From Bacilli bacterium (GTDB taxonomy: Bacteria > Bacillota_I > Bacilli_A > RF39 > UBA660), in the NCBI GenBank assembly GCA_017544165.1, contig JAFYER010000001.1, positions 18,946-82,945 of the forward strand: 64,000 nucleotides of DNA, written 5' to 3'. Position 1 is the stretch's first letter, and every line of letters begins with the position of its first letter. A program made the translations under genes and the position numbers. The notes under the pieces were generated by a model. The model saw only the letters and a program-made list of their open reading frames with translations, made no database searches and was not told where the DNA came from. Below are positions 37,076-43,363 of the stretch, piece by piece.

Positions 37076-37321
37076 ATGGAAAGTGTCTTATCTGCTACGA
37101 TGATTGCCGTAGGAATTATCCTTGGATTAACTTTTTTAGGTTTATCCATAGGGCTAGGAGTTTTAGGAGGAAAAGTTGCTGAGTCAATTGGTAGAAATCC
37201 TGAAACTAAAAATGATGTTCTTCATTCAATAATGACCATTTTGGTTGTCCTAGCAATATTCTTACTATTCTTATTTTCATTTATCTATATACTATTATAT
37301 TTAAACCCATTTGCAAGTTAA
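37076..37321 (+). CDS. ATP synthase c-subunit-like hairpin protein lacking the ion-binding carboxylate
   Basis: 81 aa. Helix 1 is Gly-rich ([11 protein letters not shown]). The polar loop [12 protein letters not shown] matches the c-subunit R(Q/N)P loop. Helix 2 ([29 protein letters not shown]) contains no Asp or Glu. Confidence 0.6.
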
Positions 37322-37324
37322 TAT

Positions 37325-38077
37325 ATGGAAGTAATTGTATTAATTGTAATTATTTCTTTACTAACTGTCGTTTTATTCTTTGCTTTAAAAAAGCTTATAG
37401 ATAATATAACAAATGATAGTAAAGAGTATTATTTCAAAAAGGTTCAAGATTACGATCAAAAATTACTTGATAGAGAAAATGCTTTAAAAGATCTTGAACC
37501 TAATGAGATAAAAACTAATAATAATAGTAATAATGAGAATGAAAAGGGAAATAGAAATTATGAGATTGATAAAGGCTTTTTAGATGTCGTAAGTAACACT
37601 GATTATGAAACCGCTAATGCATTAAAAATAGCTAATCGCGTTGATGAAATTTTTCAAATAGATGAAGAAAAGATTATTAAAGATTTCATCACTAATTGTA
37701 AATATAATAAGAATTATAAAATATATGAAACATTACAAGCTCGTTTTAGTCCTAACTTAATATACAAGCTTAGAATGTTAAATCGAGATGGACAAATAAC
37801 GGCTATTAGTAAAATAATCAGTGATGAAGAATACGAAGTTTTTAATGCTTATATCAAATCACATAAATTTAAACTTGATAAGTTTTTACTTGATTTAGAT
37901 TCGGTTATTAAGAATAATAAACCGGAAATAGAAGTAATCGTAGGCAATCACTCAAAAAATTATGATTACTTATCTCCATATATTAAAACCACTTATAGTG
38001 AAGATGTATATAAGGGAATAATTATTAAATATCAAGATCGTATATACGATTATAGTATTAATGAAAGGGATGTGTAG
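37325..38077 (+). CDS. single-TM coiled-coil protein, candidate b/delta-like stalk component
   Basis: 250 aa with an N-terminal TM helix followed by a charged helical region. Only its position between the c-like and alpha-like genes supports the call. Confidence 0.35.
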   Translation: MEVIVLIVIISLLTVVLFFALKKLIDNITNDSKEYYFKKVQDYDQKLLDRENALKDLEPNEIKTNNNSNNENEKGNRNYEIDKGFLDVVSNTDYETANALKIANRVDEIFQIDEEKIIKDFITNCKYNKNYKIYETLQARFSPNLIYKLRMLNRDGQITAISKIISDEEYEVFNAYIKSHKFKLDKFLLDLDSVIKNNKPEIEVIVGNHSKNYDYLSPYIKTTYSEDVYKGIIIKYQDRIYDYSINERDV

Positions 38078-39401
38078 TGTGAGCGTAATGTGGGATGAAA
38101 TAGCTACAGATGTAATGAAGAACATTACTGATGAAGATAACATTTTTAGTGTTGGTAGAGTTGTTAGAGTATCTAATAACGTCGTCGAAGTAGCAGGCCT
38201 TAAAGATGTAGCATTTTTTGAAACAGTCAGTATAGTAAACAAAGCACGTGGATATGTATCAGCGATCTTTGATAATACAGTAAATATTTCGCTTGTTGAA
38301 AAAAAAGATGATATTATTGTCGGTGATAAAGTATATACTTTAAACAAAAGCTTTAAAGTATCTTTTTCAATGGATTGTCTTGGCAAAGTAATCGATGTCT
38401 TTGGAAATGATTTAATATCTGGCAAAAGATTCGAAAACCTCTTAGAATTTGATGTTGAAAATGAACCAATCGAAATTATAGACCGGACAGAAGTTAAAAG
38501 AGAATTTTTGACAGGTATTACAGGTATTGATTTATTCTATCCAATTGGTAAAGGTCAAAGGCAACTTGTTATTGGGGATAAAAAAACTGGTAAAACGCAA
38601 ATTTGTCTTGATATGATTAATAATCAAAAAGACAAGAAAGTTGTTTGTATATATGTAGCAATTGGTAAAACTAAAAAAGAAGTTAAAGAGATTTATTATG
38701 ATTTAATTAAGAATAATGCCAGTAGTTATTCAATTATTATTGCTTCTTTCGCAGATGATTTACCTGCGAAAACATATATTACACCATATGGTGCTACATC
38801 TTTAGCAAGATTTTTGATGCTTCAAGGGCTTGATGTTCTTGTTATATTTGATGATTTGAAAAAACATGCCGATATTTATCGGCAAATGAGTTTAGCTGCT
38901 AAGAAGATACCTGGACGTGATGCTTATCCATCAGATATTTTCTATACGCATGCTAAACTACTAGAAAATGGCTGTCAACATAAAGATGGTGGATCTATTA
39001 CCATGATACCTGTTGTTGAAACCAAAAGTGGGGATATAACTGATTATATTTCGACAAATATTATTTCCATTTGCGATGGTCAGTTAGTATTATCACTTAA
39101 GAAATTCAATCGTGGTGAAAGACCCGCTATTGACTATGGACTTTCTGTATCAAGACTAGGTGGAGCAGTCCAAACAAGGGAAATGAAAAAAGTTGGTATC
39201 AAGATTCGTCAAGATTTACTTTCTTATTTGGAAATAAGAGAAATCTACGAACTTGTTAATCTAGATGATTTAGGTGAAAATATGAAAAATCGGATGATCG
39301 AAGGTCAAAAGATTCTTTCTAAATTAAATCAATATAAATATTGTCCTCTTACAAAAGAACAAATGGTTAATTTGTTTGATGACATTGAGGAGGCTAGATA
39401 A
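38061..39401 (+). CDS. F1-ATPase alpha-subunit-like protein
   Basis: 446 aa. Walker [19 protein letters not shown] (canonical GDRQTGKT), [31 protein letters not shown]. It is shorter than housekeeping alpha (about 500 aa). Confidence 0.85.
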
Positions 39402-40750
39402 TGATTATAGGTAAAATAATATCAATTTTTGATGTATCAATTAAAGTAATCTTATCAGAAAGCAATTTACATGTCGGTGATATTCTTGAAACAGAGGATG
39501 GTAAATACTCTTTCGAGGTAGTCAATATCGATTCTATTGAAGCGACATGTATAACTTTAAAAACTAATCATGGTCTTAAAAAAGGTGCTAAATTAATTAA
39601 GAAATCCGCTGGTATTGAAATGGAATACTCTAATAAGGTTATTGGTAGAGTATTTGATTCTTATGGCAAAATAATTGATGGTATGCCATTTGATAGTGCT
39701 AAGAAAAGAATTAATAAAAATGGTACTATATCACTTCAAAAGCTTGATACTGATACCGAGCCACTATGGACAGGTATTAAAATTATTGACTTTTTTGCGC
39801 CAATTCAAAAAGGGTTTAAGATTGGGTTAATTGGTGGAGCCGGTGTAGGTAAAACAGTTCTTATTCGGGAACTTATTCACAATATTTATAATGATACATC
39901 CGCTAACGCTATTTTTATTGGTGTAGGTGAACGTTCCAGAGAAGGTCAAGAATTAATCGAAGAAATGAAAAAATCTAAACTTATCGATAAGATTAGTTTA
40001 GTATTTGGACAAATGGGTTCTAACCCAGTTTCCCGTAGTAAAGCAGTAGATTCTGGTTTGACAATTGCTGAGTATTTACGGGATGAAGAACATAAAGATG
40101 CCTTAGTATTTATCGATAATATTTATCGTTATGTTCAAGCTCAAAGTGAAATATCAATGGAATTAAAAGAAATATTAGTTGAAAATGGTTACATGGCTAA
40201 TATGGCAGAACTAGTTAGTAAAGTTGAGGAAAGAGCTAATTCAACCAAGGATGGAGCTATTACTTCTTTCCAAACAATTTATGTACCAGCTGATGATTTA
40301 AATGATGAAGCAGTTCAAACAATTTCAGCTTATATGGATGGTCAAATTACCCTTGATCGTAAAATGGCTGAAAAAGGTTTGCATCCAGCGATTAATGTAT
40401 TCAAAAGTACTTCTAAATTAGTTGATGCAGATAAGATAGGTCAAAGACATTATGATTTAATTAAAAAAGCTTTAGCTTATTTTACAAGATATGAGGAACT
40501 TGAAGAAGTTATTGCTATTTTAGGTATAGATGAAGTAAGTGAAGAAGATAAGAATATTTTCTATCGTTCAAGAAAACTTCGTAATTATTTTTCCCAACCT
40601 TTATTTGCGGCAGAAAGCTTTACAAATATGCCGGGAGTAAAAGTTGATATAAATGATATCTTAAATGATGTAGAAAATATCTTAAATGGTACTTACGATT
40701 ATATCGATGAACTTAGCTTCTTATTTATAGGTAAGTATAATGGAAAATAA
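39401..40750 (+). CDS. F1-ATPase beta-subunit-like protein (catalytic residues conserved)
   Basis: 449 aa. [64 protein letters not shown]-like [11 protein letters not shown]. The start overlaps the alpha stop. Confidence 0.9.
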
Positions 40751-42223: not shown

Positions 42224-42224
42224 A

Positions 42225-42563
42225 ATGGAAGAAAACTATGTAGGTAAAACACTAAAAGATGACAAAGAAAATGAGTATATTATTCTTTCCCAAATTCGTT
42301 ATAAGAGTTTACCATGTGTTTATGCAATGAAAAATGATTCTAATGAAAGTGGTGAAAAAACATTTTTCCAAGTTGTAGTTGGCAAAAATCCTCATTTAAT
42401 GGAAATTAAAAGTGAAAAAATGAAAAAAACACTTTATGATTTAATGTTTAAAGAATCTATTAAAGAAGAAAAACCTCGTAAAATAAAAGATAATGAAAGT
42501 ATTACCGATTATTTTGCTTATTTAGATGATTATTATAAAACAAAAGTGACAACCATTTTATAG
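42225..42563 (+). CDS. small soluble protein of the ATPase cluster, unknown function
   Basis: 112-aa ORF tightly packed between its neighbours. I recognise no motif. Confidence 0.45.
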   Translation: MEENYVGKTLKDDKENEYIILSQIRYKSLPCVYAMKNDSNESGEKTFFQVVVGKNPHLMEIKSEKMKKTLYDLMFKESIKEEKPRKIKDNESITDYFAYLDDYYKTKVTTIL

Positions 42564-42571
42564 GAGGCACT

Positions 42572-43363
42572 ATGCGTAATATTAAACCAATTGTACAAGT
42601 TATGAATTTGTTCTCTCTTGTTCGAATTAATGCCGCGAAAACCCGGGTTGAAGAATTTGGTATGACAAGTTCCGTTTTGACGAGAATTATATCTTCGATT
42701 ATGTATAATGATAATATTGTACTTGATAAGAATAATGTAGTGCCAGATCCCACTAAACCGGTATTAAATATATATATTGCTTCTGACTTTGGTTTTTGCT
42801 CGACATATAATCAAGTTGTTTCAAATAAAATTAAAGAGACAAAAGATGCTTATAAAATTATTATTGGCAAGAAAATAGTTTATAATGATGATAAAACGGT
42901 AATGAAACTTTCGAAAGAAAACTTTTATGAAGATTTACCGATGATTAAAGACTTTCTTGTAAAAGCTGTCAATAATCGTGATTATAGTCAAATAAATATT
43001 TTTTACAATCATTATTACAATTATTCACGTAGTGATTTTACATCACTTCAAGTATTTCCAGTTGAATATAACGAAGAAGCAAAAGAAGATGTTGATTTCC
43101 TAGTGGAGACTGATATTGTCAGTTTTATCAATAATTTAATTGCTTATTATGTATGTTATCAACTAGAAATCTGTGAAGTCTTTTCTTGGGCTTCTGAAAA
43201 CGTTATTAGAAATACGATGACCGCCTCATCATTAAAAAAGATTGATGAACTTGAGTCAATTGAAAGGGTAAAAGCGATAAGAGAACAAAGGGAAAAAAGT
43301 TTGAAAAAGAACATAGAAAATTCTAAAAAAGTTATTTTTACAGATTATGAAGAGTTAGTTTGA
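42572..43363 (+). CDS. F1 gamma-subunit-like protein
   Basis: 263 aa. The N-terminal helix MRNIKPIVQVMNLFSLVRINAAKTRV and the C-terminal WASENVIRNTMTASSLKKIDEL match the gamma pattern (..I..I......I..AM.....K / ASE...R..AM..A..N...L). Confidence 0.55.
   Translation: MRNIKPIVQVMNLFSLVRINAAKTRVEEFGMTSSVLTRIISSIMYNDNIVLDKNNVVPDPTKPVLNIYIASDFGFCSTYNQVVSNKIKETKDAYKIIIGKKIVYNDDKTVMKLSKENFYEDLPMIKDFLVKAVNNRDYSQINIFYNHYYNYSRSDFTSLQVFPVEYNEEAKEDVDFLVETDIVSFINNLIAYYVCYQLEICEVFSWASENVIRNTMTASSLKKIDELESIERVKAIREQREKSLKKNIENSKKVIFTDYEELV

Follow-up and report, generated by a model that had tools for sequence, protein, structure and literature searches.

In mycoplasmas, it is established that F1-like ATPases can drive surface systems (PMC12994834, PMC11864180), and the open-access literature treats such repurposed ATPases as a peculiarity of these organisms. 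The G1-ATPase of Mycoplasma mobile (Type 2) is an F1-like, rotary-type hexamer whose force is proposed to reach giant surface proteins across the membrane (PMC11864180). The Type 3 F1-like X0 ATPase, which the antibody-cleaving MIB-MIP system requires, is a fast-evolving enzyme encoded beside surface proteins that it is thought to energize mechanically (PMC12994834). In addition, lmo0087-lmo0094 of Listeria monocytogenes has been termed an "ATP synthase-like operon" (PMC13082608); Listeria has this related operon plus a normal atp operon, and its gamma gene, lmo0091, was a hit in a screen for intracellular replication (PMC3091722). Here, we describe a cluster of ATP synthase-like genes in a 64,000-nucleotide stretch of DNA from a Bacilli bacterium (assembly GCA_017544165.1, contig JAFYER010000001.1, positions 18,946 to 82,945), which we call the window and whose positions are used below. 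An earlier note made from the letters of this DNA had regarded such a cluster in a peptidoglycan-containing bacterium as new. This novelty is diminished by a less diverged operon with the same architecture that is already annotated in Listeria, lmo0087-lmo0094, of which we found no mechanistic study in the open-access literature.

Nine open reading frames (ORFs) on the forward (+) strand fill positions 37076 to 43363, with junctions that are either overlaps of 1 to 17 nucleotides (nt) or gaps of 1 to 8 nt; all nine of the consecutive genes proposed earlier were recovered at the coordinates given for them. They encode, in this order, a c-like subunit, a stalk candidate, alpha- and beta-like subunits, an epsilon subunit, a five-helix membrane protein, a single-pass accessory protein, a soluble protein, and a gamma-like subunit. 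The parts of the F1 head are recognizable, whereas those that couple a rotary ATPase to ions are not, and we lean toward the view that the cluster codes for an F-type rotary ATPase derivative, which hydrolyzes ATP, is uncoupled from ions, and powers a surface machine. The host is a low-GC bacterium (~29%), and the window also encodes PolC, DnaE, MraZ/MraW, a PBP, a Mur ligase, Ddl, and MltG, the last five of which bear out the assumption that the host makes peptidoglycan.

c-like subunit, ion path, and F1 head

The 81-aa c-like subunit (37076 to 37321) matches Pfam ATP-synt_C (1.3e-6; 29 bits against a cut-off of 24) and contains two transmembrane (TM) helices and a GRNPETKND loop. It was aligned with its relatives from the family of clusters described below, with the canonical c subunits of Bacillus thuringiensis and Escherichia coli, and with N-ATPase c subunits. 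At the alignment position of the B. thuringiensis Glu and E. coli Asp61, the window's family has L, F, or T, and no Asp or Glu was present in the second TM helix (TM2) of any of the 79 c-like family sequences. To our knowledge, every characterized rotor ring of the F, V, or A type relies on a membrane-embedded carboxylate. An invariant His (in the motif DV[VIL]HS) is located at the start of TM2, ~10 residues closer to the cytoplasmic loop than the carboxylate column, and a C-terminal NP[FL] motif is kept. This NPF/NPL ending on the outer face is common to the c subunits of the family, Listeria Lmo0088, and the N-ATPases (37076 to 37321 in the window; 3341 to 3583 in locus L090; L092, L093, and L095), and the canonical Bacillus and E. 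coli c subunits do not have it.

No homologue of subunit a was identified in the operon with Pfam or NCBIfam. The 171-aa membrane protein (40996 to 41511) is predicted to have five helices (AlphaFold2 model; predicted local distance difference test [pLDDT], 77), and it is a family-specific core subunit, the gene of which follows that of epsilon in all complete loci and the product of which has four to five helices across the family. Its sole invariant residue is a Gly, and no Arg is conserved. Only 13 representative relatives were found among 1.84 billion proteins, and none of them is an a subunit. The family profile had no match in the PDB, and Foldseek gave the model no PDB match with an E value below 1. 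We considered the protein as a degenerate a subunit or as a descendant of AtpI, AtpZ, AtpQ, or AtpR and rejected these origins because of the missing Arg and the lack of any PDB profile, Foldseek, or hhalign match; the hhalign negatives are weak, since the same small profiles also missed the true relationship of epsilon. The earlier note was right to describe a non-canonical F1-like cluster in which c is degenerate and subunit a is absent. The RL.N motif that it had seen in the 171-aa protein is not conserved across the family. As the c carboxylate and subunit a are both absent, both halves of the ion path of the characterized rotary ATPases are missing and, judged from its protein sequences, the complex cannot be an ion-coupled ATP synthase.

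It could still be asked whether the complex translocates ions along a non-canonical path, with the 171-aa protein in place of subunit a and a c residue such as the invariant His as the carrier. A membrane protein of four to five helices always follows epsilon, and the His and NP[FL] motifs of c are conserved, as noted above. However, the rotor carboxylate is missing without exception, the His is displaced toward the cytoplasmic loop, and the 171-aa family, with one invariant Gly and 26% to 28% identity, is unlike a conserved ion channel. Furthermore, Listeria has its related operon besides a normal atp operon (PMC3091722). We consider an ion pump of this kind to be quite improbable.

The alpha-like (446 aa; 38061 to 39401, with the public gene call starting at 38079) and beta-like catalytic (449 aa; 39401 to 40750) subunits both match Pfam ATP-synt_ab (3e-68 and 2e-63, respectively), and the gamma-like subunit (263 aa; 42572 to 43363), whose gene has moved to the last position in the cluster, matches Pfam ATP-synt (PF00231; 9e-23). 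The beta translation shows the Walker A motif, GERSREG, the Walker B motif, and a DEVSEED loop, and the alpha translation shows GDKKTGKT and the arginine finger SVSRLGG, so that the identity of the two proteins and the catalytic motifs reported earlier are confirmed. The alpha and beta genes are adjacent, as had been proposed; the alpha stop and the beta start overlap by one base (AGATAATGATT). The best PDB matches of alpha are alpha chains (~284 to 314 bits), with residues 19 to 436 aligned to residues 16 to 434 of 502, and its C terminus is truncated compared to that of canonical alpha. The beta subunit matches canonical betas in the PDB at ~297 to 354 bits (best natural beta, ~340 bits) and the M. 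mobile G1 beta (9io5_A) at 276 bits.

Profile searches thus matched ATP-synt_C, ATP-synt_ab (for alpha and beta), and ATP-synt gamma, and the 87-, 171-, 242-, and 112-aa proteins had no Pfam match. For the 87-aa protein (40740 to 41003), which the earlier note had called an epsilon-like beta-sandwich, sequence searches gave no support, as none of 37 family members had a Pfam match and the family profile found nothing in the PDB. The structure model did. The AlphaFold2 model, based on 30 homologues, is all-beta and has a pLDDT of 89.9, and the top 50 Foldseek matches in the PDB are all N-terminal beta-sandwich domains of F-ATPase epsilon (mitochondrial delta) subunits (TM-score, 0.70 to 0.77; root mean square deviation, ~2.2 Å; probability, 1.00). 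In addition, the gene is located directly 3' of the beta gene in all related loci. On the strength of this model, the 87-aa protein is an epsilon subunit cut down to its N-terminal beta-sandwich. It stops where the sandwich ends, and therefore the inhibitory C-terminal helical hairpin is absent, which fits an enzyme that operates in hydrolysis only.

The stalk candidate (250 aa; 37325 to 38077) has an N-terminal TM segment (residues 1 to 28), a charged middle region, and a sub-threshold match to OSCP (0.0068, over residues 109 to 247). Its C-terminal motif (YKGIIIKYQDRIYDYS) showed 38% identity over 26 aa to the Bacillus delta subunit by BLAST, and its C-terminal 28 residues matched Bacillus delta with an hhalign E value of 4e-4; the family profile had essentially no match in the PDB. 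We regard the protein as a probable b-delta fusion, mainly on the basis of the position of its gene and of a Listeria protein in which a TM segment is joined to an OSCP domain.

Distribution, conservation, and phylogeny

The distribution of the cluster was scanned with a profile of the gamma family, using one genome per species, and 80 loci from the 199 matching genomes were examined. Relatives are present in at least 199 species-level genomes. These are uncultured metagenome-assembled genomes labeled Bacilli, Tenericutes, "Mycoplasma sp.," Clostridium sp. CAG:302, and Firmicutes CAG:321, obtained from human, goat, roe deer, and chicken gut and from other gut and rumen samples; a few records bear other taxon names and are probably misbinned. 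The host taxa presumably are orders of the RF39/RFN20 type. We found no description of the family in the open-access literature on F1-like ATPases of Erysipelotrichia, Firmicutes, and RF39.

Every complete locus contains a core of seven genes, namely, those for c, the stalk protein, alpha, beta, epsilon, the five-helix protein, and gamma. Between the window and distant subfamilies, the levels of identity are 58% to 65% for c, 58% to 68% for beta, 55% to 63% for alpha, 40% to 61% for epsilon, 42% to 44% for gamma, 29% to 33% for the stalk protein, and 26% to 28% for the 171-aa protein, which places c among the best-conserved core proteins and makes the stalk and 171-aa proteins the fast-evolving ones. 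These numbers bear on whether the cluster is a decaying remnant of a housekeeping ATP synthase that has lost its membrane sector and yields at most a soluble F1 ATPase. The losses of subunit a, the c carboxylate, and the C-terminal domain of epsilon are the changes that would be expected in a degenerating operon. However, the core ORFs are intact and their order is conserved in 80 loci of different species, the catalytic residues are unimpaired, c is as well kept as stated above, and the searches returned 380 gamma and 410 epsilon clusters at 90% identity, as well as at least 8000 beta candidates. Decay is thus very unlikely and, because the core is intact in the 80 loci and c is roughly on a par with alpha and beta in conservation, the ATPase system is, as far as sequence conservation can tell, under selection.

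Gene order differs among the relatives with respect to gamma. In three loci (L052, L088, and L081, the last of which is partial), the gamma gene is located between those for alpha and beta, as in canonical operons. The same three loci carry a homologue of the 242-aa gene in the last position, and L088 has an 845-aa ORF at the alpha position that may be a fusion or an artifact of ORF calling. A paralogue-rooted neighbor-joining tree of alpha and beta (411 columns, with canonical F1, N-ATPase, and Listeria sequences) placed L052 and L088 at the base of the family in both its alpha and its beta half, which suggests that the ancestral order was probably c, b-delta, alpha, gamma, beta, epsilon, membrane protein and that gamma moved later. 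In this crude tree, alpha and beta do not fall inside the housekeeping F1 sequences; the window's family (99% to 100% bootstrap support) is outside a clade (90% to 97%) that comprises canonical F1, the N-ATPases, and Listeria lmo0090/0092, a placement that may result from long-branch attraction.

Surface proteins and the proposed machine

The tight gene packing does not begin with the c-like gene. It reaches upstream through a 452-aa gene (35700 to 37058; 17-nt gap to c) and a 1995-aa gene (29706 to 35693; 6-nt gap to the 452-aa gene), both on the forward strand, so that the nine-gene block of the earlier note stands as a block but not in its limits. From 29706 to 43363, the window genes are spaced by 17 nt or less, with terminator-like hairpins on both flanks, one just 3' of ddl (29612 to 29632) and the next one 3' of a pilin gene of the Flp type (43605 to 43624). 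A promoter-like site (TTGACT-18-TACAAT with a TG) is located on the forward strand at 29658 to 29687. The hairpins and this site are consensus matches only. The operon probably starts at 29706, with the two surface-protein genes first.

The 1995-aa protein consists of an N-terminal TM anchor (residues 1 to 21), a juxtamembrane module, a Gly-rich linker, a domain shared with the 452-aa protein, and ~1500 residues in which no domain was recognized; it had no Pfam match, and its homologues are encoded upstream in most related loci. The single-pass 452-aa protein (TM residues 7 to 40) has the Gly-rich linker and the same beta-rich domain, the copy of which in the giant protein spans residues 295 to 462 (independent E value, 9e-6), and the N-modules of the 1995-aa protein and the 452-aa family are also related (hhalign, 91.7%; E value, 7.6e-7). 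The 242-aa single-pass accessory protein (41495 to 42223; TM residues 7 to 39) weakly matched the N-modules of the 452-aa protein and Listeria Lmo0087 (hhalign, 52% to 65%; E value, ~1e-4). These comparisons suggest that the 242-, 452-, and 1995-aa proteins are three paralogues sharing a TM helix and a juxtamembrane module, the link to the 242-aa protein being the weak one. The 242-aa protein is essentially the juxtamembrane module alone and is an accessory subunit in the giant-protein-bearing subfamily; its homologue is encoded upstream of c in 21 loci and between the 171-aa and gamma genes in 12 loci. The soluble 112-aa protein (42225 to 42563) was found only in the window's own clade (12 loci), has no predicted TM segment, and matches no Pfam or NCBIfam family.

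Upstream genes were surveyed in the 57 related loci with at least 3.5 kb of upstream sequence. A homologue of the 452-aa protein is present in 34 of them, mostly together with a giant gene, and Listeria has a homologue at the same position, which supports the linkage to surface-protein genes pointed out earlier. The gene immediately 5' of c encodes an N-terminal TM segment in 59 of 65 loci.

Taken together, the parts would form the following machine. A catalytically competent F1 head of alpha3 beta3 gamma, with an epsilon reduced to its beta-sandwich, would sit on a ring of c-like hairpins devoid of the ion-binding carboxylate; the single-pass protein with the delta-like C terminus would be the peripheral stalk, and the five-helix, family-specific membrane protein would take the place of subunit a. 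ATP hydrolysis would turn, or at least torque, the gamma-epsilon-c-ring assembly against a stator composed of the stalk and the five-helix protein. The motion itself would then be the output, handed over to the co-encoded single-pass surface proteins (242, 452, and 1995 aa), and the result would be a surface machine that runs on ATP and serves in adhesion, movement, or the remodeling of surface fibrils. We infer that the complex assembles, that its c-ring turns, and that the surface proteins are its load.

Several observations weigh against this proposal. Support for a delta-like stalk protein is weak, the sub-threshold OSCP match appearing in only 4 of 45 members of the stalk family. An unorthodox form of ion coupling would become more attractive if the hosts had no normal F- or V-type ATPase. 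The neighbor-joining tree separates the family from the Listeria operon. In the upstream survey, 14 of the 57 loci have unrelated single-pass proteins (p248/p398) in place of the 452-aa homologue, and 9 have no recognized upstream partner. Homology between the two accessory sets (242-aa/452-aa/giant and p248/p398/p290) was considered and rejected, as hhalign detected none beyond the TM helix. Since the accessory surface proteins are not universal, the load varies or may not be what we propose.

A bolder version of the surface-machine proposal can be put forward only tentatively. In it, the ion-blind ring would have been kept as a purely mechanical part, and membrane-anchored surface fibrils would be spun or cranked by the motor; their TM helices might lodge inside the c-ring or rest against it. 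The family would then be an unrecognized class in hundreds of gut Bacilli species and Listeria, and a walled-cell ancestor or sister of the mycoplasma motors for gliding and antibody cleavage.

The neighborhood also bears on a different possibility, that of an export or assembly ATPase similar to the flagellar or type III FliI-FliJ-FliH, which would energize the secretion or assembly of the surface proteins and not their later mechanical movement, or else would serve small secreted proteins or the Flp pilin. Alpha and beta match FliI/SctN models (1e-53 to 1e-63), as is expected from the known homology within this superfamily. In many related loci, one to five tandem genes for small proteins with signal peptides of the SipW-dependent type follow directly downstream, and a Flp pilin gene is located 3' of gamma in the window and in ~29 related loci. 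However, no homologues of the FlhA/FlhB-type export gate were present, and the N-terminal signal-anchor helices of the surface proteins are ordinary ones, which Sec/YidC could insert. The conserved c-ring and the DELSEED loop of beta point to rotary torque and not to substrate unfolding. A Tad system of its own is encoded close to the Flp gene, and the small downstream proteins are absent from the window. We therefore regard an export function as unlikely.

The arrays of secreted proteins (~200 to 260 aa each; for example, 13821 to 16619 in L007 and 14005 to 18114 in L008) have N termini that scored 14.5 to 19.1 bits against the SipW-dependent signal model TIGR04088 (cut-off, 19), and the proteins contain no Pfam domain. 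The Flp/Fap-type pilin gene of the window (43407 to 43601, forward strand; PF04964, 2e-8) has a promoter-like site of its own at 43360 to 43388, by consensus match only. It is possibly co-transcribed with the ATPase cluster but probably belongs to the Tad-type pilus locus at 49801 to 56599, which encodes a 751-aa protein, a TadE-like protein, a ParA/TadZ-like ATPase, a T2SSE ATPase, and two T2SSF proteins. The ~6 kb between the two contain the housekeeping genes ireB, ruvX, mltG, U32 peptidase genes, and greA. We considered the Flp pilin as a part of the machine and rejected it, as a complete Tad locus is nearby and the gene is absent after gamma in the whole p248 subfamily.

Farther away in the window, positions 57337 to 62258 encode a large serine recombinase (Resolvase, Recombinase, and zinc ribbon), a Mob_Pre relaxase, and, on the minus strand, a 493-aa protein of no known family. 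This is the only stretch with negative GC skew and is probably a small integrated mobilizable element. A HipA_C kinase-like gene adjoins a gene for a HIRAN-domain protein at 2080 to 3627, and the two may be a toxin or defense pair. Two proteins of ~600 aa without a Pfam family are encoded among replication and cell division genes (8422 to 10230 and 18026 to 19837).

Comparison with known rotary ATPases

The type of the enzyme was tested with the curated models of NCBIfam and their cut-offs. Alpha scored 369 bits with the canonical model TIGR00962 (atpA; cut-off, 484), 407 bits with PRK13343 (cut-off, 554), 329 bits with the N-ATPase model TIGR03324 (cut-off, 750), 375 bits with the Type 2 model glide_MMOB1660 (cut-off, 600), and 287 bits with the Type 3 model MSC_0619 (cut-off, 520). 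The corresponding values for beta were 416 bits with TIGR01039 (atpD; cut-off, 463), 363 bits with TIGR03305 (N-ATPase; cut-off, 752), 333 bits with glide_MMOB1670 (Type 2; cut-off, 850), and 382 bits with MSC_0618 (Type 3; cut-off, 570). Gamma reached 52 bits with TIGR01146 (cut-off, 194), and c was below the cut-offs of all c models, with 45 bits against 71 for the NCBIfam c model and 20 bits against 131 for the N-ATPase model TIGR03322. As alpha, beta, gamma, and c are below every curated cut-off, the cluster is, by these scores, not a canonical F1Fo ATPase, an N-ATPase, or a Type 2 or Type 3 ATPase.

Canonical F1Fo is nevertheless the source of all of the recognizable parts, and its gene order (c, b, delta, alpha, gamma, beta, epsilon) is kept in the basal members of the family. 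The window differs from it in having neither a nor AtpI, an apparent fusion of b and delta, a c subunit that is carboxylate-less, an epsilon without the C-terminal domain, and a shortened alpha C terminus. The N-ATPases (atpDCQRBEFAG) resemble the window in being extra F-type operons with no separate delta gene, a long b subunit (~250 aa), and a c subunit ending in NPF, but they keep subunit a, AtpQ and AtpR, and the c-ring Glu. With hhalign, we detected no profile similarity of the 171-aa protein to AtpQ, AtpR, or a or of the stalk protein to N-type b. The idea that the operon arose through circular permutation of an N-ATPase operon, prompted by the shared NPF and the long b, was rejected, as both the HMM (hidden Markov model) scores and the profile comparisons are against it.

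The resemblance to the mycoplasma Type 2 and Type 3 F1-like X0 ATPases, which the earlier note had emphasized, does not extend to membership as judged from model scores and gene content. The general logic is the same, that is, an extra F1-like head accompanied by membrane proteins of an unusual kind and by large surface proteins (PMC3369863, PMC12994834), and the second-best NCBIfam matches are to MMOB1660 for alpha and MSC_0618 for beta. However, these scores are far under the cut-offs and no better than those against canonical atpA and atpD, and the PDB scores given above place the M. mobile G1 beta behind the canonical betas. Nor is there a 12-TM protein or a protein that has a signal peptide as well as two C-terminal TM segments in the window; the gene order differs, and a c subunit and a delta-like stalk are present. 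Descent shared with, or transfer from, mollicutes as a member of these types is therefore largely refuted, and we give it next to no weight.

The Type 3 system (MSC_0618/0619, MIB-MIP) is like the window in that it comprises an extra F1-like set of alpha, beta, gamma, and epsilon and a membrane part that is not Fo. Unlike the window, it has no c, delta, or b, and its alpha, as predicted with AlphaFold3, has no delta-binding N-terminal helix; the neighboring genes in the window operon had no match to a Pfam family, and gene content and order differ. The Type 2 G1-ATPase of M. mobile (PDB 9io5) has a large N-terminal extension of beta that dimerizes the motor into chains, whereas the 449-aa beta of the window has none. 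Type 2 has a 12-TM protein, whereas the largest polytopic protein of the window has five helices, and the other five genes differ as they do from Type 3. Conversely, the window has a c hairpin, a TM-delta-like stalk protein, and a five-helix protein that set it apart from both types. We infer that the machine is functionally analogous to Type 2 (gliding) and Type 3 (MIB-MIP) yet belongs to a separate lineage.

The best match of the window's beta among plasmid records, at 42.5% identity, is to a misfiled L. monocytogenes chromosome, NZ_CP030101.1. This record is a 2.9-Mb Listeria "plasmid" that resembles a chromosome, and NZ_CP151868.1, a 571-kb "plasmid" of B. thuringiensis with housekeeping atp and nuo operons, is also chromosome-like. 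The Listeria locus (L090) is a second atp cluster, lmo0086-lmo0094. It encodes an 80-aa c subunit with a Val at the carboxylate position, no carboxylate in TM2, and an NPF end; a 348-aa protein at the stalk position with an N-terminal TM segment and an OSCP match above the cut-off (37.5 bits); alpha and beta; gamma (180 bits); epsilon (DE_N, 59 bits); and, 3' of epsilon, a 186-aa protein of no known family with four predicted TM segments. Upstream of c, Lmo0087 is a 769-aa single-pass protein that matches the 452-aa family over 333 columns (hhalign, 98.2%; E value, 3.3e-14). The N-module of this family matches Lmo0087 at 92.7% (hhalign), and the HMM of its C-terminal domain matches Lmo0087 residues 349 to 468 at 9e-14. 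A transposon phenotype of Listeria "atpD2" (PMC9608667) was considered and set aside; the gene, LMOf2365_2502, is located beside atpI (LMOf2365_2509) and far from lmo0088-0093, and we took it to be housekeeping atp.

The Listeria operon is thus like the window in its carboxylate-less c, a single stalk protein in which an N-terminal TM helix is combined with an OSCP/delta portion (putative in the window), the absence of subunit a, the polytopic protein trailing epsilon, and the upstream protein of the Lmo0087 type. Its order of c, b-delta, alpha, gamma, beta, epsilon, and membrane protein is that of the basal L052 and L088 and the partial L081. The window is unlike Listeria in having gamma last and the 242- and 112-aa genes added; the Listeria subunits are much less diverged (epsilon, 110 aa, versus 87 aa in the window), and Listeria alpha and beta group with canonical F1 and the N-ATPases in the neighbor-joining tree, with the window's family outside. 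By hhalign, the stalk and trailing membrane proteins of the two showed no detectable similarity. The best pairwise scores of the window's beta and c are nevertheless those with the Listeria proteins, and lmo0087-lmo0094 is the closest described relative of the window cluster.

The cluster would accordingly represent an independently repurposed F-type ATPase in walled Bacilli of human and animal guts. The family keeps the c-ring and a stalk with a putative delta portion without the ion-coupling parts, and it offers a natural experiment on the role of a rotor ring that no longer carries ions. It is plausible as an evolutionary intermediate and may be a stepping stone from the ATP synthase to the mycoplasma surface motors. 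As the Listeria operon is genetically tractable, has a normal atp operon alongside, and includes a gene, lmo0091, that was recovered in a screen (PMC3091722), this question can be tested directly in the closest known counterpart of the window cluster.

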